In this document: positions 3,901 through 59,275 of the stretch, piece by piece
How the letters are laid out: each line of letters opens with the position of its first letter
Numbering within the stretch: the first letter of the stretch is position 1
Assembly (NCBI GenBank): GCA_035084275.1
Contig: CM068757.1
Location: forward strand, 3,100,001-3,164,000
Reading direction: 5' to 3'
Length of the DNA: 64,000 nt
Origin: Hydrolagus colliei
Taxonomy: Eukaryota
Notes under the pieces: generated by a model
The model's input: only the letters and a program-made list of their open reading frames with translations
Told to the model about the DNA's origin: nothing
Databases searched by the model: none
Program-made: the position numbers and the translations under genes

Positions 3901-5213
3901 TCTGGTGGAGGATATAATGTGAGTGAACAGAACATTGTTGGCTGTCCCATGTCTGCCTATTCTTCTGGTGCATCCAATGAGTGTCATTGTTATGGTAGCA
4001 TGAGGAGGGCGTCCTTTGTGTGACAGACTGAGCTTGAAAGACTCACGGCATCACAACAATGCTTATCAGCTCAGTTAAACTAGCATTATAAGTGTCTGAA
4101 GAAATTGCACCAACAGCTGTTGCTCAATGGCTGTGGAAACCCAAACGCTGATTTAATCAAGTTTGGAGACATTAATTTTAGGAAATGCAGAATTTCTGTA
4201 ACTGCAGGGATGTTGAAAGGGAAATTGGCAGTGTAGAAAGCTAAGGAAGGTGACAGTGGTGGCTGTCGATTTATTACATTACAGTACTTGGATGTTGGAG
4301 AGCAGCTGTTGAACTACAACTCGAAGACTGCTCCTTGCAAATTTGGAAAGCAGGAAGACAAAGAAGATGATTTTATTTACCTTCCCATAAATAAGTTTTG
4401 TTGTTAACCATACCTGATGAGTTTTCCACTCATACATTTGATGCTCTGAATCTACACCATATGAGGCAGGTAAGTTCCTAGTGACCCTTTATGGGATAAA
4501 GATCATCTGGGTTCATCTGCTGCACCCTGATCTAATTGAAAAGGATTTGTTGAAGGCTCATTGCTCCACGTTTCCACTGTTTCTTTGATACAACAGAGAC
4601 ATGGGACACATTAATAAGCTACTTCTGTTTCCCTTTGATAATCAAAGTGCTTAGCAATTGCCTTGAGCACACAGAATAACAATATTGTAACGAATTGGAT
4701 TTTTATGTTGCCTTTTCTTTCACAGAAAAATAAATATCTTAGAGCACTTTGCACAATACAATTGATTAAAAATGAAGGTGATCGTGGGATAGACAAAAGC
4801 AGCAGCTAGTTTGTGCCGACAACATGCCATAAACAATGAGACTTGTTAATTAATTTTCATTGGGGCTAATTTCGATTATGAGGGGAATAGAAACTGGATG
4901 GATCACTAAAGATTTTTAATTTTAATAAATAATGGTTCTACTAGGGTGCTGAATGGCTGTAAATGTTAAAAAAGCAACCATAATATTTCAGAGATCTCCA
5001 TATGGCTAATGAATACTTTAATGAACTTTAATGTTACTTGCTGTTTTGAATGTGAAGGATGAATTTGAGTTCTTCCACAAACATGTACTGTATGTTGTAG
5101 AACAACTATGTACTTCTGATCTTCTTATAGCTTACAGACCTTCATATATCAATTAAATTCTTTGGAGCACTTTGAGATGCCTCAAAAACATGATGTAGCA
5201 CTATATCAAATGC

Positions 5214-5507
5214 TTGCATTTGGTATAGTGGTTTTCATATCTTCTAGACGTCTCAAAGCGCTTCACGGAATATACTGTAAAGTGAATTGCCTGTATATTT
5301 GTGGGCGAAATATGACAGCCAATTGCACACAGCAGTGTCCCAAAAACAGTCGTGGATTGAAATGACCAGTTTTATTATTGTGGTTTTTTTTAGGGATTAT
5401 TATTAGGTGTGTGGAAGAAGAAAACTTGCCCAAGGTTTCGCTCTGGATTCAAACACAGGCCTCAAGCTTGTAAGCCAAGTGCTCTAACCACTGAGCTACA
5501 GGTCTCC
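5214..5507 (-). mobile_element. Near full-length copy of the same SINE
   Basis: Reverse complement of the 10846 family; ends ...GTGCTCTAACCACTGAGCTACAGG. Confidence 0.88.
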
Positions 5508-5869
5508 ATCATTTATTCATCTATTATATCAGAGCAACAAGGCTTTTAGCTTTTTGGCGCAGTGGAGTTTTGCTCCAGATGGATGTTGTGTTTTAGATGA
5601 GAACCTTGTGCAGGAATCAAGAGCTGTGGGGCCAGGATTAGTGCCAACATGATGAACAACACAAACAATTGTAGAAGGGGTTGGAGTAATGGTGTTGAAT
5701 TCTATTTGCTACAAGGAAATTATTGCTCAGGCCATCTTTGTCTACTTATCTGAATCATGACCGAGAGCAAACTACTCTGTGGAAGGACGAGAGATAATCC
5801 ACTAGTTCATTGCTGTGGAATCTTAATCGATGAAACAGGAGAACACAGAGGGTGGTCGATAGATTGCAA

Positions 5870-5980
5870 AGATTACAAAGAATGTATAGCGTGGAAACAG
5901 GCCACTTAGCCCAACCAGTCATTGCCATTGTTGGTACTCCACATGAGTCTTTATCCATTTCTTGAAAACCTATTCTGATT
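5870..5980 (-). mobile_element. CR1 3' end remnant
   Basis: GAAACAGGCCACTTAGCCCAACCAGTC resembles the reverse complement of the CR1 3' terminal motif seen at 59221-59245. Confidence 0.55.
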
Positions 5981-8099
5981 TACTTTTATTAAAAGGGTAC
6001 TATTACTGATTTTGTACAATAAGTTTCAGAAATAGCCAGAGTATACCATTTTAAAAGGCTTCAAATGGATGCTTTTGTCGATCTTATGCTTGGTTAACCA
6101 CTGGGACATTGGTGGGGAGAAATTACAATATTAAGAAACCTTGTGTTTGATTTAGGGCTTTACAACATCGCTGAGACATTTCAAAGTGCTTCACAGGGTT
6201 TACTGTAAAATAATGTGATGGTGTATTCGTAGGCAAACACAACCACCTGGAACTAGATTTATCTTATTTATGTAACTTTTAAGACAGTCTTGAAGTTGGC
6301 AGATTCATAAAATAACTTTTCAAGGTAGTTTCTCCCTGAAGTTCTTTTTAAGAACTATTGGATATGGACTTTAAAATTAAGACTTAGATTCAACAATTCA
6401 CCAAAATTCTGGGACATCTAAACTATCATACAGTATATAGTAAATCTAAATCCAAGTGACATTTCTCCTCTTGAGGACATTTTTGGTGTGCAATATTAGA
6501 GCTTCAATATCCCATGCAGCAAGCTCCATCTATTAGCCATAACATCAGGGTAGTGATGAGGAGAGGTTAAGTAGTTTCCTTGGAAAATAATTGAACAGCC
6601 AATCATCCTGGATCACTCCAACACAACTCTGAGCACTGTTGGGTGAACCAAACTACTGTTTGGTTCAGTAGTTATCACTCTGACACCTTCCTACAGGGAA
6701 TCGTGTACTGGAGAGGCAATCATTGAAGTAGCAAACTTTTTTTTATATATATGAAACTAAATCTACAATAGAAAACCCCAAAGTCTTCAAATATCAATAA
6801 TTCATCAAACAAGCTGTCAATGTTACCTTGCCTGTGAGAATATGCTCCAATTTATTAACAAACTAAAATTAATTTATTAACTGAACAGATACATAACTAA
6901 CACGACGAGTGAAACAAAGGTAGAACGAAAATGTAGAGTCACTGGAAGGTGGATAGTAGTTTATCTGTATGCTGCCTTCAGGAATGTGTAGCTTGATAAA
7001 TCAGGTGATATAATTTGATTCTCTCAGGAGACAGGAGTGTTGGATTTTTGATAGGACATTATATGTCTATGTCAAATTCACCACGGATGTCACACAATCT
7101 TTCTAAATGATACAATGCTGTTGAATAATTGGACGGGAATATTTATTTTGCTATCCAAGAACAACACCCGACGGTGCCATCAATTTGACAAGCGAATCGG
7201 TCATAAATAAATAACCTGGTCATTCATTGCTCCACTTGCCTCTGAAAACTTCGGAAAGCGTTTAGTTCAGAGAAGTAAGAAGGTGAGGCAGACTCAGCAA
7301 GTTCCTGACTCGAGGAGGATGCTGTGAACATTTTTGATGGATATTAATCAGGTTTCCTTAACATTGCATTGTTCAGTGAAGCTATGTGATGTTACCCTCC
7401 GCTGCCAGTTATGGCAAATGTTTAAACTGCGACTGATTTGAACTCATTGAGTATGAAAAGCCATAAACCATGGTTTGCATGGTGACAAGTTTTTTTTTAA
7501 AACAAATTACTTACAGTTAGTTCCACATTTGAATTCACAGACATAATAGAATCCCCCCTCAAACCCCCCACCTTCCCCCTCGGATGCCCATTAAGTGACT
7601 TCGAAGGTGCACGTTTGGCTGAAGATTTACATTTAAATGGCAACCCAGCAGAAGGACATGAATGTACCAGGTGTTCATTTTTCTAAACTAAAATAAAAAT
7701 AATAAGCCCTTTACAGTCACGGTTAAAAGACAGAGAACTTGCCACGTCTCCTTGATGCGAACTGTTTGCTGCATTTAACAGTTGGCCAACAACAAAACTA
7801 ATGGAATTACTGATTGATTATGGAAAGAAAATACGAGCTGTTTTCAAATAAGCCTGTTTTCAAAATAAGCCTGTGAATGTCGGGGCCACTTAAACTTCAT
7901 TACTCAGACATCCTTTGATTAATTAGCAAGTATTTCTAGCTACCCATTACCCCCCAGCCTCTCATACAGGGTGACCAACAAGTCGTGATATCTACCCTAT
8001 TATCTGCCTACATATATAGATATTTGTTTTAAAAAATCTATCTATGTTTTTAAATTAGAAAGACGTATTAAGAGCATTGTGATAGCATCACAACGTTTG

Positions 8100-8526
8100 G
8101 ATCTGGACATCTATAATTGGACCAACACAGGGGAGGCTGTGCTTGATTATCTGAACGCCAGTCGCTGTCCTCCAGAGAGGGGGTGCTGAAATGCCCATTC
8201 CTTGCTTGACTCCCGACTTAAACTGCTGTAATAACAAATCCCTCGGGATAGCATGAGTCGCTGCGTTGAATAATCACAAGCTCTGTGGCTGACTGCTTTA
8301 CAGAGGAGTGCAGCCTCATTGCTCGTGACATCCGATATCAAAGACTGGGAACAAATCACACTCCAAGCTTCATCTACCCGACTGTCTGTCTGTCTTTCTG
8401 GCTGTCTGTCTCTGCAGATTTCTACTGGTTAAAACAGCCAACCTCTCTTTCTCTCTCTCTCACACACACACACTCCCCCTCTCTCCTTACTCAGTAGCCT
8501 GTGTTTGCTGAAGGGAAAAGGCAGAT
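8100..8526 (+). promoter_or_regulatory. Probable proximal promoter/5' UTR of the LUZP2-like gene
   Basis: Locally higher GC/CpG with (GTCT)n and (CT)n(CA)n microsatellites directly upstream of the start codon. The TSS cannot be determined from sequence. Confidence 0.45.
8161..8190 (-). promoter_or_regulatory. Candidate non-canonical (expanded-spacer) RE1/NRSE REST-binding site
   Basis: Minus strand reads TTCAGCACC-ccctctctgga-GGACAGCGAC: a perfect left half-site and a 9/10 right half-site, separated by 11 nt instead of 2. It lies about 340 nt upstream of the ATG. Confidence 0.5.
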
Positions 8527-8588
8527 ATGAACCTTCTCTACGCCTTGTGGTCTCTCCTCCTGTTCTCTGCCCTGGCTGCCAGCACAAG
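8527..8588 (+). CDS. LUZP2: LUZP2-like coding exon 1 (signal peptide MNLLYALWSLLLFSALAAST-R), 62 nt, phase-2 donor
   Basis: ATG at 8527. Hydrophobic N-terminus ending ...STR, like recalled human LUZP2 (MKFSPAHYLLPLLPALVLSTR). Donor AG|GTGGGT at 8589. Phase joins exon 2 in frame. Confidence 0.85.
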
Positions 8589-10297
8589 GTGGGTAAGATA
8601 TCACCATTCTCTTTATCTTCTCGCTGTGACATTAGCAACATTAATATAAGTGACTTAACCTGAGTATATAGTGGCATTGAATCGTTTGATTTTTGGGTGG
8701 GAGGGGGGATTCCCAAGGACAAAGCTCTGAGAGAGTGTCATTTGTGTTTTGAGACAATATTTGAAATACAGTAGTGTGTGTGATTTGCGTCGCCTTGGCT
8801 GGTGAGACTTACACGTCGGCAATCGGTGTCTTATCGATCACCAACTTAGTTTCAACCCATGCGTTTTGCTGTTTCCAATGTGGGGGGTTTGGGGGTGGGG
8901 GGGGGGGGGTTATTTATCTGTGTGAACACTCCACCTGCGATGAACGTTTGCATAACTCACGCGTCTCCACAAAGCAGAACTTTAACACATGGAACCTGAG
9001 TAAAATGGCTCAGATCAGACACGTTGGCAGAGATGCAAGTTCCTCAACTTGAGATGTTCCGGTGTATATTGCTCTCGTCGAACCGTCCAAGGTGCGAGTC
9101 AACGCTCACAGTGTATCGCGTCAGTTAGTCTCGAAATTAATTGGGAATTATCAGTAGATAAATGCCTGGCTCTGACCAATGGGCTCCACACAGTCAATTA
9201 AATGATTCTATCGTGCTTGGACAGCTCTTTGATGAATCGGTTCTGCTGGCTTGACTTCACAGGCTGTAGATGGAGCAGTTGGGTGGTACGTGGCATCTTG
9301 CCAGTTCCATTTGTCCAGACTTTGGTTTTTTTCCCCCCCTCTTAACATAAAAGTACAAATTCCCTCCTATGGAGGAATGATTGATTAAAGTCACTCTGTT
9401 TGGAAACAGAACTCCAAAAGGAAATCAGTATGCCATGTGCCATCAATCATCAAACTCCCCTGGACCTGAAATTCTGTATCCATTTCCTTCTGTGTTACAC
9501 GCAAAATAATTGCTGCTGTTTATTAAGCGACACTTTAGGGGGGGGGGGGGGGGGACAGAAATGACCAAAGTCAAAGAATGACTCTTGATTCCCTTCTCTC
9601 TTTCTCTCTGCACGATTCCAGTTTTTCTTATTGGCGTTTCAAAGAGGTCTGTGCAAATAGTTGTTAGTTTTAACCTCTCGAGTGCTGGACTGAGAGCGAA
9701 CAAATAGTTCCTGGAAAGTGGAGAGAGGAAGTGAGAGAGAGAGAGAGGGAGAGAGGTTTCCGAACAGAACATTCGCCCAATGTGATACATCAGTAAGATA
9801 GCCAGGCTGAGCACAGATCTCTGTACCTTGCTCCCCCTGGAATAAAGATTTTCTTTCTCTTGCATTGGTGTTGGACCTGCTGGATGTGGAAGTTCAGAAA
9901 AAGGGGAATACAAGGTGGAAATGTGGAAGTGCACTGTTGATTGATTCTACTGCTTACATTACCCTTAACTGATGTCAGTGCTGGCCCAGAGTGCAAGGCA
10001 AGAGAAAGAGATAATCCGTTATCAGCATGTTCTTGGTCAAACAGCTTGTTTCTAAACGTGTGGTTCTCAATGTGTGATTGATTGTTGTAATCGCCACTGA
10101 GCTGAGATCTGCTAGTTCAGTAAAACTAGGAAGCTCTGGACAAGGCTATCTTGCTTCTGTATTGCTCTGGTAATCTAAAGGGGCGCAATGTAATTTAGAC
10201 TTCACTGGAATCTTTCAAGTCGGGAGGACATCCCAGCATCTTAACAGAGCTACATTTCGCCTACAACATGTAGGATCAAATTAGCTTTATGGTGTTA

Positions 10298-10845: not shown

Positions 10846-11160
10846 GGATTCCTGTAGCTCAGTGGTTAGAGCACTTGCCTTACAAGCGTGAGACCTGTGT
10901 TCGAATCCAGGCAGGTTAGGGCGAAACCTTGGGCAAGCTTCCTTACTCCACATGCCTAATAATAATCCGTTAAAAAAAAACTATAATAAATTGGTCATTT
11001 CAATACATGACTGTTTGTGGGACACTGCTGTGCGGAATTGGCTGCCGTGTTTCACCCACAAATATAAATTCAATTCACTTTACAATATATTCTGTGAAGC
11101 AGTTTAAGACATCTAGAAGATGTGAAAAGCACTATATCAAATGCAAGGATTATTATTATT
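10846..11160 (+). mobile_element. Full-length tRNA-derived SINE (~315 nt; tRNA-like head, Deu-type body, L2-like tail ending in (TTA)n)
   Basis: A box TAGCTCAGTGG and B box GTTCGAATCC, body GTTTGTGGGACACTGCTGTG...AATTGGCTGCC, tail CTATATCAAATGCAAGGATTATTATT. More than 15 related copies occur in the window. It resembles the holocephalan SINE2-type family as recalled, not searched. Confidence 0.9.
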
Positions 11161-12636: not shown

Positions 12637-13748
12637 CAACAACCATTGTAATTATTTTTTTCTCTTGCTGGTCATCAGCAAACCTTCAAACAATTACTGT
12701 TTGATGAATTCCTTTCTGTGTATAATAACTAAACTGTATGGATTTTTTTTTCCTTCCACTGCTGAATGGTATTAATAATCATGCAGTTACGCCAGTGCTG
12801 AATTGCAGTTCCCAATCTCTATCAAATCTTATTGAATTCTCACGGAGAAAAAATATTTATTGAAAGATTCAAGGAACGTAATGCTGAAGTCTTTCACACT
12901 CTTATCACAAGATTCCTCCCTCATTCTAGCTGTCCAATTCCACACAACCTCCTTCAACTGGGAGGTCTCAATCGCTGTCTTCTTCACAACCTCTGACACA
13001 GATGCCGCTCAACATTTTTGGCCCATAAGTGAAGTCATTCCGAGTCAAGACAGACAAAGTGTCTCTATTTTATTCCCTATAGGGTCATATCAAGGCTTCG
13101 TGTCTGTGAGGCACATCAATTGATATCAGATGAAACTAATCAAATATCTGGCTGGAAAATGTAACTGTCACTCAATCCCTGGGCACAAATTCACAATGAG
13201 TTGACACGAATTGAATGTTTCAGAGAATAACTAAAACCAAATTAGAATTGTGGATGTGCTTGAATGTGTTATTGCTGTAACTCGATTTCTCTTTGTAACC
13301 AATAGGAGCATTCATTTACAGTCAAAAGGAACTGTCGGCGTAGCTTGTGATCTAACTGCTCTGCTTGTATACAGCAGCCTGATCCAGGCCTGCACTGAGT
13401 GTGAGTTTGGAGCTTGGTTACACAGGATTTTCTGCACCGATTTCCCCATCACAAAGGGTTTAGAAACTTGAGAAACGTCTTGCAATACTGTGAGAACACA
13501 GATAAGATTACTGAGTGTCAAACTGAGTGCAAAATTGACAAGAATCAAGTGTTGACAGTTCATAGGCACTTTTCGCTCTTGTCACAGAAGCCTAATTAAA
13601 CTCAGGCAAATTGCTAGCTCGGTCAGGATTTATATATTTTTTAAAACTTTCACAGGCACAAAAATCTCAGCAAAGATTTTCTGCTAACGTGGATAACACA
13701 TTTGCAAAGGTTCTACTGAATTACTCCAAGAATAGGCAGTGATTGATA

Positions 13749-13850
13749 TCTGACGAAGGGTCGTGGACCCGAAATGTTGATTCACTTTCCTTTCTCCATG
13801 GATGCTGCCTGACTACTGAGTTTTCCCAGCAACTTCGGTTTTAGTTTATC
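13749..13850 (+). mobile_element. Second copy of the hammerhead-bearing short element (degenerate), with a 13-bp TSD
   Basis: GTGATTGATATCT (13739-13751) and GTGATTAATATCT (13851-13863) flank the insert. The insert reads TCTGACGAAGGGTCGTGGACCCGAAATGTTGATTCACTTTCCTTTCTCCATGGATGCTGCCTGAC... Confidence 0.72.
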
Positions 13851-16363
13851 GTGATTAATATCTATCCAACAAAATACAATTCTGACTTTCAGTGAAAACA
13901 TCTGGAATAGATGTTTATCAATCACATATGTTAATTAACCCTATGCGAGCTGTGAATAGGTTTACTTATCAGAGTGTACTCGATCGACCCAAACTTCCTT
14001 GATGCCACCATCTTGATCATTTGTTTTTGCTGGCTGAAATCTAGTCAATAGTCTGTATCCACACATTTCTTTAAAACATCTCCCAAACAGATGGACAGAA
14101 TCAGGAGGAGGCAGATCATAAATAAATCATAAGAGAAGCAATAATGCAAAGGTACAGTAGAACATGTCTTTATGCTGCATGTCATTATAGGCAATAGAAA
14201 TGCACCTTCCAGCATTGTACAGTACTTGTAATTTGCAGATTTCCTTAGGTATTGAAATATGTTCTACATTCAATTGTAAACACGAAGAATTTTATTAAAT
14301 GTGTGTAAAGTCTGCTGGACTAAACAATGCTGATTATGGCCAGTGGACTGTATCAGTATCAACTTGCAATGGATTTTCATTATCTGTTTTGTTTCATCTT
14401 ATTGCCAGGATTCACAGTTTTGCTTCTATCTATATTTCTGATAAGTTTGCTGCGAGTATGGATTTTACCTAATAAGATCCAAAGCCGCCTCATTTCTCAC
14501 AAGAGCAAACTGTTTCTCTACCAAAGTAAGCCTTTACTTTAAATCTAATGAATGGATGAGATAAGAAGTTAAGGTTGGTCTCTCAGTGGAATGACTAACT
14601 CACTACCTCATAGATTTTTTCCAGCCTTCTTATTATTGCGCTATACTGTAGTTTCTAAGTATTCCCATTTGAAATCTGTAGCTTGAACCAATTTGTCGAA
14701 GCAGTAATGAGAGGAACAGAAATGTGAAATTTCCAGAAGCCTAATCTGTGATAGTACAATGCCTCCCCCCAACCCCCATGCCTTGGAGAAAATCATGGCC
14801 ACTCAAACTGAAATGAACGGCACTTACCAAATATTTAACATAGATAGATTTTGGGAAGAGTTAATGTGCACCTGCAATTTTTTTTCACAATTCCATGCTT
14901 TTGGTGAAATCAAGCAGGCAGTCTGTTGGTAGTTATGGGTGAAACACATATGAAACACACTTACGAGAAGGTATTTCCTCCAATTGCATAGTTAAATCTC
15001 TCCCGCTATGCATCACCTTCATCTGATTTAATCACAAACTGTCTGCAGAATCACAAACTAATGTTTTTCAATCACAACGCAGGACAAGGTTAGCAGAGCA
15101 ATTTATTTTTCCGAGTCATTGCGGTGACAGTTTTTGCTACAACAGTTCCAATGACTGCAAAAAGTATATGTTTTATTTTGTCCTGCAAATGGATGTGGTG
15201 TGCGTTTGCAATGAACAGAGACCCTAGTGGTTCTATCCATTTTTAGAACTTTTGGAAAACATCTGGGCTCCAATCTGAATTCCATTAATATTGGTTTCAA
15301 TGAAATATAACGTAGCCAGTGTGACATGCACTCCGACTGCGATGGGTTTGTATTGGGCATGGGCAGATCACTGAGCTATCTAATGGATTGATGTGTGCTA
15401 ACTTTTATTACCGTACGCCAGCAGGTGGTAAGGAGTACTGTCTCGGATGCTCTGTCAGAGGTAGTCTGTCAAGAGATAAATTGACCACCAGTTGCATGAA
15501 TCACATCATGTCACATCATGCAACGTTTGGGATGCAGCCGCAAAAGCATATTTAGTGATCATTTGTGTTTTAGGAAGTGATATCACTACAGCTGTGGGCA
15601 ATGGCTGATTAGTTATTCCTTGAAAGGTAGTGAGATCTCTAATCTTGCAACAAAAAAAACAACTGTTCTCGTATTTTCTACTGCCAACAACGGCCTTACC
15701 TACTGATGCAATATATAAACGTGAGCACTCTGGAGACTGGAGGCAGATCTCCCAAGGTGAATCTTCATCTTGCCTCTGGAGGGAACCGTACCCAGAACAG
15801 CAGGAAAAACTCTGCTCCTTTGTGTACTAAGCTCCTTGGTATTCTGAGCTGCCTTTGTCACAAACTGTACCCACAGACTGGGCAGGTACTGGACAGGACT
15901 CTGATATCAGTTTCCAAGCATGAACTTGCAATCACATAGGCCACGTGTCTTGGATTCTGCCTCATAAAGCAAGACAGCACCATGTGGGTCAGAATAAAAT
16001 TTGGATGGAATTGGTTCCGAAGTATCGCGAAGGATAAATAATGCATCAGAGAAGATTTAAAGCCGAGAGTTCAACGAAGATTTGAAATTCTGTGTAATTC
16101 CCGCAGAGGCAGGCCACAACACTGTAGGGTATGCGGTGTCGCCAATCATTGGAAATAATTTCCTCTGAGCTATATTCTGTAGGGATGTTACACTTAACAT
16201 GAACCCTGATAAAGTCACACATCTTCATCACCGGAGCCAATAGATTTTTATATACCGTGCATTCAAAAATGGAGGAAATGAATTTCCTATTGGACACATT
16301 TACATAAGTGCACCGATAATTCATAGAAAGAGGCTATTGGTCCCATCTTGCCTGTCCTGAAAC

Positions 16364-23938: not shown

Positions 23939-24145
23939 GGAACCTCCTGCAGCTCAGTGCTTAGAGTACTCGCCTTACAAGCGTGAGACCTGATTTCGAA
24001 TCCAGGCAGGTCAGGGCGAAACCTTGGGCAAGTTTCCTTACTCCACACACCTAATTCAATAATAATCCCTCCAAAAAAACCCACAATAATAAAATTGGTC
24101 ATTTCAATCCACAACTGTTGTGCACAACTGGCTGCAGTGTTTTGT
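23939..24145 (+). mobile_element. SINE 5' part, truncated where the hammerhead-bearing palindrome begins
   Basis: tRNA-like head CCTGCAGCTCAGTGCTTAGAGTACTCGCCTTACAAGCG...TTCGAATCC; no tail. Confidence 0.85.
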
Positions 24146-24152
24146 CCCGGTG

Positions 24153-24273
24153 GGTCAGGCAGCATCTATGGAGAAAGGAAAAGTGAGTCAATATTTCAGG
24201 TCGAAGACCCTTCGTCAGAATCCGAATCATAGACCCAAAACATTGACTCACTTTTCCTTTCTCCATAGATGCT
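24153..24273. mobile_element. Inverted (head-to-head) dimer of the same hammerhead-bearing element, abutting a truncated SINE
   Basis: Arms 24161-24202 and 24232-24273 are reverse complements (32 bp perfect, then 3 mismatches in 10). The minus arm retains CTGACGAAGGGTCTTCGACCTGAAA. Confidence 0.75.
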
Positions 24274-24398
24274 ATTATTTGCAAGGCAGATTATATGGAC
24301 ATATCTTATTATTATCATAAAATAACCAACACTCATTCGCCAGAGTTGAAATTCTGTATAGCCCGGTTATATTAAAAAATATATCTTTGGCTAATAAA

Positions 24399-24524
24399 CT
24401 CTAAGAGAAGGAAACCCGATCATCAATCTTTCCCTCTGAATAGTTCTGCTTGACCTGCAAGTTGCTCCCAGCGATTTCTGTTTGTGTTTCAGATATCCAG
24501 CATTTTCAGTATTTTACGTTTTTG
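24399..24524 (+). mobile_element. Old, degraded relative of the same Penelope-type terminal repeat
   Basis: ...gttctgcttgacctgcaagttgctcccagcgatttctgtttgtgtttcagat... resembles the GATGCTGCCTGACCTGCTGAG...CCCAGC...GTTTT 3' part of the younger copies. The ribozyme core is eroded. Confidence 0.45.
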
Positions 24525-32235: not shown

Positions 32236-33240
32236 GAGAGAAAGGAGATATTTGCGAGTAAAGATTGTCCCTGAATTTCCTCCTGTTTTGAATTTGCGGG
32301 TAGATTTGCTGCATTTTGAATTAAGCTCTGCTCAACAACTCATCTCTGAACTGTGAGCCCTTCAGTCAAATAACTCAGTAGTGTTACTGATCATTCGCTT
32401 AATGCATCAGTATCTGGACAGCCTTCAATTTCAAAATTGCCTCCAAGACTTATTTAGTACCACACACTCAAAAAAAACGCATCTTCAGTCATGTAAAAGA
32501 ATAGCACAATTCAGCAATATTGGTGTGTGTGTTCTAGCATGAAAACAGCAAGAGATTTGGCAGGTTCCGTATATTGCACAAACAGAATGTCCATTGCAAA
32601 ATAAAATAATCCATCGAAAAAATTGTGATATCATCAATACCCACACACAATCTTTTGAGCAGTGCTCACCCTAAACAAATGTTTATTGTAATGGTAATTC
32701 TATCAATCTCTCAGATCCTCTCCAGAAATAACATTAATAAGAGTACAACAGAGATAGTGTCCAAACTCTTAGAGGAATCAATAAAAACTGGTTACATAAT
32801 AGAATATTTGACAATATCTGAAGCTCGAATGTTGATTCGGTTTCCTTCGGAGTATCTAAACCACTGTTTGGCCATGCTTAGGAGTATCTAAACCTGATAG
32901 AGTTCCACATTATTTTAGACAGTTTCATTTGTCCGGGAGCATGGAGCGTGTGCTGTTTACCCAGAGAGACATGTCTTGCTAATGTAATCCCAGAAAGCAT
33001 TAGGCATAGACTGGTAAGAGCCAAGACTTGATTTGGTCAAACACTGCCAGATTAACCAGCTAAAATCACTTTGCTAGTCGTGGCGAACACTGCCTGGCAA
33101 GCTTCCCATTGCCTGTCCAGCAAGTCTGCACATTAGGACTTTGACTTGCGGGATTGACAAGAACAATGTGGGAAGAATTCCCAGTGACTTGTCTGTTCCT
33201 CCAAGTCATGCCAGCACGTCAGGCTAACTTGGTCTATCAT

Positions 33241-33344
33241 ATAAAAAAAACTGAAATGGCCGGGAACGCTCAGCAGGTCAGGCAGCATCTATGGAGAAAG
33301 GAAAAGTGAGTCAACGTTTCGGGTCCACGACCCTTCGTCAGAAC
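33241..33344 (-). mobile_element. Short Penelope-like-element-derived insertion carrying a minimal hammerhead motif, flanked by an 11-bp TSD
   Basis: TGGTCTATCAT occurs at 33230-33240 and 33345-33355. Minus strand reads GTTCTGACGAAGGGTCGTGGACCCGAAACGTTGACTC...GATGCTGCCTGACCTGCTGAG...TTTTTTTTAT. Homologous to the copies at 13750 and 24153. Confidence 0.75.
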
Positions 33345-33345
33345 T
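33309..33345 (-). ncRNA. Minimal type I hammerhead ribozyme motif (predicted)
   Basis: 5'-AGUU CUGACGA A GGGUC-GUG-GACCC GAA ACGU U / GACU-3': conserved CUGAnGA and GAAA core, 5-bp stem II, 4-bp stem I (AGUU/GACU) and a palindromic ACGU mini-stem III. Confidence 0.6.
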
Positions 33346-34157
33346 GGTCTATCATCAACAATATGTTGGAACACTACCGACTGGTTCATGAACCAGACAA
33401 CAAGAACAACAACTTGGATTTTTATCGCGCCCTCCATGCCGAACGGCATCTCAGAGCACAGACTACAGGTCATGTGGGAGCAAGCTCATCCCCAAAGAGA
33501 CCCTGCTTACTGCAACCCGTCTCTCCATCGCCCTGGCGGATATATTTTCACTGCCATATGCTGTACTGACGCACATCCATCCAGGGGTTTACTCGAGAAG
33601 GTTTGTAAGGGTTACAATATGTTTCAACAAAAAAATCTTGACATAATCAAGTCAACTGAGCTGAAACTATGTAAACAGTGTCTGAAGTACACTAGCATGC
33701 AAATATAGGGAGGACTACTTTACTGCTTTATTACTTGGCTAGTCCCTTGTAAATATTTCCCCCGTTTGATTGTTTCAATGATACGACAGAATTGAAACTG
33801 TTGACGGCAGTGTTGCCTCGTACAATTTAAATGACCTCTCTACCATATGCGCAATGTCTATAACGATGGCACAATACAATTCCTGACAGTGCCAGGAAAA
33901 TTTCTAATTGTCAAAACAATGGTCTCGTGTGAGTGCAATTAAAACGAGCCTTGCAGCACTCGTGGAGACCTCTCTCCGAGTAAAAACCATTCGCTTCCCG
34001 TTCGCAAGGATGCCAGTGGTCACGTGGAAAAGCAAATAATTTGTTAGAAGTCTTGAGTCGTTGAAAATTGAGTAAATTAAAGGGGATAAGCAGTTTCAAC
34101 CAGGCCCTGATCCATATTTCACACCACTGATTTTGTTTATTGTTGTTGTTTGATTGC

Positions 34158-48710: not shown

Positions 48711-49158
48711 TGGAGTCCTGTAGCCCAGTGGTTAGAGCACTCGCCTTTCAAGCGAGAAGCCTGGGTTCCATTCCCGGCAGGGTGAAACCTTGGGCAAGTT
48801 TCCTTACTCCACACGCCTGGTAATATACCCTCAAGAAATGAAACAATAATAATTTGGTCACTTTGGACTATTTGTGGGACACTGCTGTTGTGACTGTGTC
48901 TCATTGTGGTACACACCATATTGTAGTGACTTTATGTCTCAGTACCGGATACACTGTGAAGTGTAGTAACTGTGTGCCTCAGTGTAGGATACTGTGTGTC
49001 TCATTATGGTTACGAACTCCAGGATAATGACTGTGTGTCACAGTGTAGTGACTGTGTGTGTATCTAAGTACAGGATATATTCTATCCAGTGCCTTGGGAC
49101 ATTCTCCCAACGTGAAATGGGCTATATAAATGTAAGTTTGTTGTTGCTGTTGTTGCTG
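48711..49158 (+). mobile_element. Composite: SINE head/body + degenerate minisatellite + L2-type tail ending in (TTG)n
   Basis: tRNA-like head 48711-48780 and body to 48888. GTAGTGACTGTGTGTCTCAGT-like repeats 48889-49080. Tail CAGTGCCTTGGGACATTCTCCCAACGTGAAATGGGCTATATAAATGTAAGTTTGTTGTTG. Confidence 0.65.
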
Positions 49159-57889: not shown

Positions 57890-58196
57890 GGAGTCCTGTA
57901 GCACAGTGGTTAGAGCACTCGCCTTGCAAGAGAGAGACCTGGGTTGAATTCCAGGCAGGGCAAAACCTTCGGCAAGTTTCCCTTCACTACACGCCCAATA
58001 ATAATCCCTCAAAAAAACTATAATAAATTGGTAATTTCAACACATGACTGTTTGTGGGACACTGCTGTGTGCAATTGGCTGCCATGTTTCAGCCACAAAT
58101 ATACAGTCAATTCACTTTAAAATATATTCTGTGAAGAGCTTGGAGACATCTAGAAGACGTGAAAAGCGCCATATCAAATGCAAGGATTATTATTAT
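57890..58196 (+). mobile_element. Full-length SINE copy
   Basis: GGAGTCCTGTAGCACAGTGGTTAGAGCACTCGCC... through ...CAAATGCAAGGATTATTATTAT. Confidence 0.9.
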
Positions 58197-58519
58197 ACTT
58201 GCACAATTTACATTCACTCAGAACATTTCACATCAGGACGATATCTCAACGCACTTACCAGTGCTGGCTGGGCACTCGGGCTGGGGGTGAGAGTGTGAAA
58301 AATGACTCAAACCACAATCCAGATGTTGAAATGTAGCCTGATCGAGAGGATGGGTGGAGTGAGTGCAATCTATGAGCAGAACCTGATCCATTCGACTAGC
58401 AATTATACACAAACATTATTTTACAGTCTCTGTTTTGCCACTGCCTAGAATTGGAGTTCACGTCTAGTTATGGTTACTCACAGGAATGCAGTATGGAGCC
58501 TGCAAAGCTTTTGACTCCA

Positions 58520-59275
58520 CTACCTGTTTAATATATATTAATGATCTGGACTTGGGTGTAGGGAGCACAGTTTCCAAGTTTGCAGATGATACTAAGTTAG
58601 GGAGAATAGTAAATAGTGAGGAGGATAGTAACCATCTGCAAGAAGATATAAATAAAATGGTAAAGTGGGCAGTTACATGGCAGATGAAGATTAACGCAGA
58701 GAAGTGTGAAGTGATACATTTTGGGAGAAGAAATGAGGGGAGGCAATATAGGCTAGATAGAACAATTTTAGGGGTGTGAGGGAACAGAGAGACCTGGGGA
58801 TTTGTGTTAGCGACTCTTTGAAGGTGGCAGGACAGGCAGACAGAGCTATTAAGAAGGCATGTATGGGATACTAGGCTTTATAAGTAGGGGTATAAGAGTG
58901 GTATAATAGGGGTATAAAATCATGAGGGGATTCGACAGGGTGAATAAGGAAAAACTGTTTCCACTGGTGGGCGAATCTGTGACTCGGGGTTACAGATTTT
59001 AAATAGTTTCAAAACAAAGCAGAGGGGAGCTGAGGAGAATTTTTTTCACTCAGTGGGTTGTTCGAATCTGGAATGCATTGCCTGAAAAGGTGGTGGACGC
59101 CGATTCGATAACAGCTTTTAGAAGAGAATTAGATCTTTATTTAGGGAGAACAGGTCTGTTGGGTTATGGTGAGAGAGCTGAGCAGTGGGATTGAGTTGCT
59201 CTTTTCAAAGAGCCAGCAAAGACTAGATGGGCCGAATGGCCTCCTTTTGTGGCGTAAAATTCTATGATTCTATGA
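58520..59275 (+). mobile_element. 5'-truncated CR1 LINE (RT C-terminal part plus 3' UTR) with an internal deletion
   Basis: Translation IYINDLD...SKFADDTKLG...LQEDINKMVKWAVTWQMKINAEKCEVIHFG is a typical CR1 RT segment with the FADD motif. Ends in ATGGGCCGAATGGCCTCC...TTCTATGATTCTATGA. Confidence 0.92.

Follow-up and report, generated by a model that had tools for sequence, protein, structure and literature searches.

The 104-nt insert at positions 33241-33344 of the analysed window (the whole stretch of DNA, 64,000 nucleotides in length) consists of a hammerhead ribozyme and about 68 further nucleotides on the minus strand, and raises the question of how so short a sequence came to be pasted into the genome and whether the ribozyme took part. 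A preliminary description, made from the letters of the window, presented this stub as a non-autonomous retroelement moved in trans. At a probability of roughly 0.55, we read it instead as a dead-on-arrival piece from the terminal repeat (pLTR) that belonged to a Penelope-like element of high abundance; the reverse transcriptase and endonuclease of the parent would have pasted it in from uncut RNA, and its hammerhead is predicted not to cut unaided.

The minimal type I hammerhead motif occupies 33309-33345 on the minus strand, and its letters are exactly those given in the preliminary description. Stem I is formed by 33345-33342 (5' strand) and 33312-33309 (3' strand). The core CUGACGA lies at 33341-33335 and is followed by an extra A at 33334, stem II comprises 5 bp with a GUG loop (33333-33321), and GAA at 33320-33318, ACGU at 33317-33314 and U17 at 33313 lead up to the predicted cut between 33313 and 33312. 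The motif has the type I order with CUGAnGA, GAAA and an NUH triplet, and displays an extra base between positions 9 and 10.1, a G10.1-C11.1 pair, a 4-bp helix I and a palindromic 15.2-16.2 with no helix III. The minimal hammerheads of metazoan Penelope pLTRs are alike in all of these details (PMC4209133; statements from cited works refer, here and below, to the sections of them that were covered), and helix II measures 5 bp in the stub against 7-8 bp in the schistosome families of that work. A loose scan of the window (CUGAnGA, stem II of at least 4 bp, GAAA) returns five matches, whereas 100 Markov simulations averaged 0.94 and attained five in a single case; the stub's family accounts for three of the five matches. 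Rfam reports no hammerhead locally at E values up to 1, nor in the window at the gathering score, and because the motif is without helix III, this miss is no evidence against a hammerhead. The ribozyme had been called intact, and the motif is indeed complete, but its completeness is unremarkable: if the four essential CpG letters decay independently, about 60% of copies should still have all of them. Within the window, the whole motif is kept in one of the four hammerhead-bearing arms.

The insert was said to lie between perfect 11-bp direct repeats, and this holds to the letter, with one copy of the target-site duplication at 33345-33355, on the 5' side of the stub, and the other at 33230-33240, on its 3' side. 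An exact 11-bp repeat no more than 5 nt from both ends occurs in 7 of 20,000 random 104-nt intervals of the window. Together with the features of the motif, the repeat supports the view of a Penelope-type minimal hammerhead carried in a short retro-insertion with duplications. The first A of stem I falls within the duplication, which may reach 13 bp (33343-33355) if a 1-nt indel is allowed, with up to 5 letters common with the parent sequence. Owing to this overlap of duplication and parent letters, the 5' junction can be placed no more closely than about 33342-33347. Across four organisms, contig pieces cover approximately 33246-33347. The earlier caveat that the element starts at the 5' stem of the ribozyme, and not at the cut site, fits the copying of uncut RNA (PMC11167929), with the exact start to be read within the latitude of the junction. 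An integrated cleavage product is ruled out, as the insert contains sequence from either side of the cut site. The two ends of the stub are not complementary, and terminal inverted repeats are absent. The reported lack of Pol III boxes agrees with our scoring, in which no B box occurs in the stub within one mismatch and the only A-box-like match, at one mismatch, lies inside the ribozyme core; the standard box consensus was applied.

The stub belongs to a family that is present in all four organisms examined and has three separate insertions in the window, the 33k stub included. A second stub, of about 99 nt, lies at 13739-13863 on the plus strand with a 13-bp duplication containing one mismatch, and starts inside the ribozyme core, without the 5' strand of stem I. 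A composite at 24.1-24.5 kb, around which no duplication was found, contains a head-to-head inverted pair of family arms at 24153-24273 (24153-24220 on the minus strand and 24232-24273 on the plus strand, with decayed cores) and the 3' part of a family copy with an extra tail of about 30 nt at 24446-24510 on the plus strand. The tailed piece resumes almost exactly where the arm 24232-24273 ends. The intervening 24274-24445, about 170 nt of AT-rich sequence with only a 5-letter inverted match at its ends, may be a later insertion into one family copy.

Over the family core, the summed contig depth amounts to about 59,000 times (X1) and 65,000 times (X5) the flank depth, both in organism A, and peaks near 120,000 times flank; such depth is not a copy number and conveys the order of magnitude only. 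The family probably comprises tens of thousands of similar stubs. In the window, insertions occur once per 21 kb, which leads to the same order as the depth estimate, and the abundance appears to lie above the 4,000-9,000 given for coelacanth and Xenopus (PMC4209133). Compared with the family majority, the 33k copy differs at five places among those listed, all of them in its 3' part. Variants at non-CpG positions are frequent in X5, where 33290 is affected in 27% and 33326 in 25% of depth.

The anatomy of the family points to its class. Penelope-like elements are marked by 5' truncation, which is heavy and the rule among them, by an optional tail of 30-40 nt, an adjacent inverted copy, duplications of 8-10 bp and a pLTR hammerhead (PMC8557442, PMC3846280). 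In the family studied here, an optional tail-type extension of common sequence begins before 33246 in eight of eight runs and recurs at 24446-24510, while this tail of about 30 nt is absent from the 33k and 13k stubs, the former ending in the short form of the family. Head-to-head inverted arms occur at 24153-24273, and most of the opposite-strand joints seen in the contig runs lie within 33336-33347. Target-site duplications measure 11 bp (exact, 33k) and 13 bp (one mismatch, 13739). A longer upstream form also exists, with one common upstream sequence behind 33347 in all eight runs (agreement 0.51-0.71). The endonuclease-bearing Penelope/Poseidon and Neptune elements share the 5' truncation, tail, inverted 5' copy, duplications and pLTR hammerhead, and also have microhomology at 5' joints and solo pLTRs; rotifer solo pLTRs are mentioned without duplications, whereas the stubs here have their own (PMC8557442, PMC3846280). 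Penelope/Poseidon and Neptune units code for a protein frame, and the stubs are left without any. On this non-coding anatomy, the stub is most likely a truncated pLTR piece of a Penelope-like element. Its mobilization by a Penelope reverse transcriptase with a GIY-YIG nuclease, as proposed earlier, is likely in view of the tail, inverted arms and duplications, though no parent frame was found: among the 148 longest of the 177 window frames of at least 66 aa, none matched a Penelope-type domain in Pfam. The single reverse transcriptase match in the window, RVT_1 at 58468-58776 (plus strand, E = 4.8e-06), is CR1-like by look and unrelated to the stub.

The kind of sequence is already known. Solo minimal hammerheads of truncated Penelope-like elements were described in 2014, mostly as single dispersed motifs that number thousands per vertebrate genome (PMC4209133), and pLTR-derived retrozyme monomers are reported from vertebrates (bioRxiv 10.64898/2026.07.22.740005). 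The covered text of PMC4209133 names no cartilaginous fish and describes no fixed 5' edge at helix I. The literature on Penelope, hammerhead ribozyme and cartilaginous fish gave no match.

The notable part is the clustered 5' edge of the family: stubs often begin where the parent RNA is predicted to start. Unrelated flanks follow behind 33344 in 290, 230, 105 and 279 contigs of X1, X6, X9 and X5, respectively, with an agreement of 0.34-0.36, and behind 33345 in 255 contigs of X5, with an agreement of 0.35. About 23% and 35% of the RNA reads that reach the edge continue upstream. The 5' ends scatter by several bases, as seen in the 13749 copy and the 24220 arm. The edge as marked by the loose ends, 33341-33347 on the minus strand, reads as an initiator-like CCA(+1)GTTC with A+1 at 33345, and can likewise be taken for a CAG 3' splice site. 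The common upstream sequence, which is a 30-letter column-wise consensus only, carries on the minus strand a TATA match of six letters in eight at -30 in addition to the initiator match at 33345, a combination found at 0.16% of window positions. The TATA and initiator motifs applied are the usual consensus forms. The upstream letters suit a splice acceptor just as well: a pyrimidine tract (12 of 15) and a CAG stand directly before the core, for which the background is 0.23%. A putative TATA box and initiator are known from a rotifer pLTR (PMC8557442, PMC3846280). We found no description in the literature of stubs fixed at the front edge of the ribozyme; supplements and repeat databases may have one.

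The ribozyme is likely idle at the 33k locus, to judge from its modelled folds. In the predicted monomer fold, G5-G8 of the core pair with CGUU at the cut site with a probability of 0.88-0.99, and stem II is predicted to form at only about 0.27 in a 300-nt context. The active swapped dimer has a predicted energy of -14.5 kcal/mol, against -21.6 kcal/mol for two monomers and -28.3 kcal/mol for a misfolded dimer. For a lone hammerhead, the prediction is a rod-like, inactive fold that would not cut on its own. Published solo minimal motifs show no detectable cleavage and their dimers cleave weakly (PMC4209133), one of nine Xenopus retrozyme dimers cleaved (bioRxiv 10.64898/2026.07.22.740005), and cleavage by the anole hammerhead needs protein (PMC11167929).

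The letters of the ribozyme vary in a way that suggests little restraint. Among the variants listed for X5, G12>A stands at 13.8% against 14.2% for its partner change C11.1>U, and G8>A at 9.9% against 14.2% for the tolerated C7>U. Neutral decay following the insertion would leave such a pattern at the catalytic G8 and G12; G8>A stays somewhat below C7>U, a gap that could come from slight selection or from clipping in the alignment. That the intact ribozyme matters at this locus finds no support, given the CpG-rate decay of the catalytic letters and the inactive fold in which the solo motif is predicted to be locked. A paired-change test on five window pieces, a small set, found none of nine stem pairs altered on both sides. 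One-sided variants that keep the pairing comprise 33329, in 35% of X5 depth, and U-A for U-G in the loose-end consensus of organism D. A stem swap of A-U for G-C appears in five of eight column-wise consensuses, in which the linkage of letters is unseen, and CpG decay explains part of it. The change of ACGU to AUAU in the 24220 arm was considered as a compensation and rejected, since CpG decay on both strands yields the same letters.

Transcripts of the family were sought in raw poly(A)-selected reads from one sample of organism B, covering 27-30% of two runs. The family occurs there in both orientations about equally, at approximately 430 and 360 per million records. Read ends do not pile up at the cut site or at the 5' edge at 33345 in these reads, though a library of fragmented poly(A) cDNA would scarcely reveal them; no reads in the sample extend beyond the ends of the 186-nt stretch. 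An opposite-strand joint at 33341-33343 is covered in the RNA of organism B (X21) by 47 reads with 17 starts. The joint, right at the front edge of the ribozyme, corresponds to a perfect head-to-head family palindrome, whose transcripts in organism B would form double-stranded RNA.

If the stub is a pLTR piece copied from uncut parent RNA, its ends would follow from the course of copying. The TATA-like box would set the start of the parent RNA about 30 nt further on, at 33345, where stem I begins, and this box would be left behind upstream of the RNA start. The enzyme would nick the target DNA and, some 100 nt downstream within the RNA, begin to copy from the first of two internal start sites; use of the second would add the tail of about 30 nt. 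Copying would proceed to the 5' end of the RNA, where the cDNA would join via a few common letters and leave a duplication of 11-13 bp, and the stub would then decay neutrally. Spanning the RNA from the first internal start to its 5' end, the stub would thereby leave out the TATA-like box. We infer all four steps; directly seen are the motif, the duplication, the family, its two 3' ends, its clustered 5' edge and longer upstream form, the inverted arms and the decay at CpG rates. The PAc (Poseidon) element of the green anole (Frangieh et al. 2024, PMC11167929) is alike in having its hammerhead about 100 nt upstream of two internal starts, an uncut RNA as the main template and no RNA-seq ends at the cut site. 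In PAc, copying sets in at nt 111-118 of the RNA, immediately past the hammerhead, and the tail is the stretch between the two start sites (PMC11167929). The pLTR of PAc reaches about 145 nt upstream of the hammerhead, and stubs beginning at the front edge of the hammerhead are undescribed in the covered text of that work.

The alternative that survives best, though we regard it as unlikely, is that the stub is an ordinary 5'-truncated copy of the 3' terminal repeat of the parent, with an edge set by a 3' splice site at the CAG or by a hot spot of joining and inversion. Heavy 5' truncation, the rule in Penelope-like elements (PMC8557442, PMC3846280), speaks for it, and the inverted-arm joints cluster at the same place as the 5' edge; random truncation, on the other hand, would not cluster. 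The pyrimidine tract before the CAG and the intron of the D. virilis Penelope, which ends at the 5' side of helix I (PMC4209133), argue for splicing, but copies of a spliced RNA should carry a common first exon, and the loose ends at 33344 and 33345 agree only at 0.34-0.36. A stall of the polymerase at the hairpin was rejected as the cause of the edge, since we would infer a stop near 33308, on the wrong side, and not at 33345.

Carried over to the family, the model of the preliminary description becomes one of self-propagating but non-autonomous units, about 100 nt in size: an internal Pol II promoter or read-through would supply the transcript, and a Penelope enzyme would re-insert it in trans. 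The very high abundance and recurring ends of the family are in keeping with this model, and mobilization in trans by pLTRs has been published, as have non-autonomous Penelope-like elements (PMC8557442, PMC3846280). The internal, TATA-less promoter of the D. virilis Penelope (PMC2377424) implies that stubs could be transcribed, which makes self-propagation possible. The frequent non-CpG variants suggest several source lineages, but such subfamilies could equally be lineages of the parent. A distinct self-propagating element finds no support in the runs, as the longer forms continue into the common upstream stretch and into the tail in eight of eight; moreover, catalytic letters decay at CpG rates and the TATA-like box lies outside the stub. 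We hold it doubtful, and rather improbable, that the stubs are a hammerhead-headed mini-retroelement lineage driven by Pol II, with an internal promoter and its own initiator at the first base of the ribozyme, and re-inserted by Penelope enzymes. Were this so, Penelope-like elements would have a SINE-like partner counting tens of thousands of copies in this fish lineage, and the fixed ends of its copies would mark, in the genome, both the RNA start and the two internal reverse transcription starts that have so far been shown only in vitro.

It is very improbable that the stub is a solo monomer of a tandem non-LTR retrozyme spreading by cleaved and circularized RNA. Animal non-LTR retrozymes resemble the stubs in being short, non-coding, pLTR-related hammerhead repeats with many solo monomers and weak activity (PMC7229834; bioRxiv 10.64898/2026.07.22.740005), and monomers derived from pLTRs are common in vertebrates, including the one cartilaginous fish sampled (bioRxiv 10.64898/2026.07.22.740005). 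A circular template could also yield ends away from the cut site. Retrozymes are, however, defined by tandem units, circular RNAs and mostly canonical type I hammerheads with helix III and loop contacts (PMC7229834), whereas the 33k locus is solo and its motif minimal. No unit-length head-to-tail joint occurs among the joints listed (15 of 56 in one analysis of the runs and 15 of 29 in another), and the ends fit a pattern of start and tail, not circular permutation. A non-Penelope repeat, such as a SINE or DNA-transposon fragment that came to resemble a hammerhead by chance or capture, is hardly credible, for although the scanned window frames contain no Penelope frame and Rfam gives no match, the stub has neither B box nor terminal inverted repeat, the family has the tail and inverted arms, and the stub displays all four further features of Penelope minimal hammerheads that one copy can show or come near to (an additional base following A9, G10.1-C11.1, a palindrome at 15.2-16.2, and related copies; PMC4209133).

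The age of the insertion can be approached from other organisms. The preliminary description had suggested looking for an empty site in related species, and an empty-site-like contig is present in X9, from the related fish organism D. This contig joins 33215 to 33343 by 11 letters, against 127 in the window, and is 116 letters shorter, against 115 expected for the insert and one copy of the repeat; its length on the right side is not displayed. It has the form of the site before the insertion, though possibly it is a paralogue, because the host sequence is itself a moderately repeated, decayed element. In organism B (X6), a contig matching 32900-33288 crosses the left junction of the insert, which makes it likely that the insertion predates the split of organisms A and B.

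The host element is recognized at 32980-33229 by its raised contig depth and stop-filled frames. In X1, depth over 32880-33229 and 33356-33385 rises to about 130 times flank, in keeping with a decayed, moderately repeated element. Its broken minus-strand frames look like a DIRS-type reverse transcriptase, a look that Pfam searches of seven host-flank segments left without support, as they returned nothing informative. At 33386-33466, only 30 nt away from the stub, is a fragment of another repeat of very high copy number, with depth up to about 25,000 times flank in X1; it is likely the 3' end of a LINE or SINE.

The single 33k locus, one decaying copy of a very common repeat, matters little. 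The family, on the other hand, could serve to test the insertion mechanism of Penelope-like elements, of which little is understood so far. Should the stubs span the parent RNA from an internal reverse transcription start to the 5' end, thousands of copies would confirm an uncut template in vivo, and the promoter would be mapped without an active element. Counts of hammerheads in genomes of this sort would, in that case, mostly count dead stubs and not working ribozymes.

Relatives of the stub were also searched for in other collections. Viral contigs contained none in both scans. Prokaryote genomes gave none in one scan and five bacterial matches of 21-29 letters in another, which we take as chance, and metagenomes gave none in one scan and, in another, two loci sharing the common core only. 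These two metagenome contigs, L001 (2726-2753) and L002 (2726-2753, minus strand), contain an identical stretch with a hammerhead-like core CUGAUGA, a 5-bp stem II and GAAAC. Both contigs are AT-rich, L001 has almost no open frames, and they are related to the stub family in the core only. The window itself is rich in another abundant repeat, a tRNA-derived SINE family with heads at 10851-10915, 48714-48785 and 57892-57963 (three Rfam tRNA matches) and a related copy at 23945-24150. The inverted stub pair at 24153 adjoins the end of a copy of this SINE.
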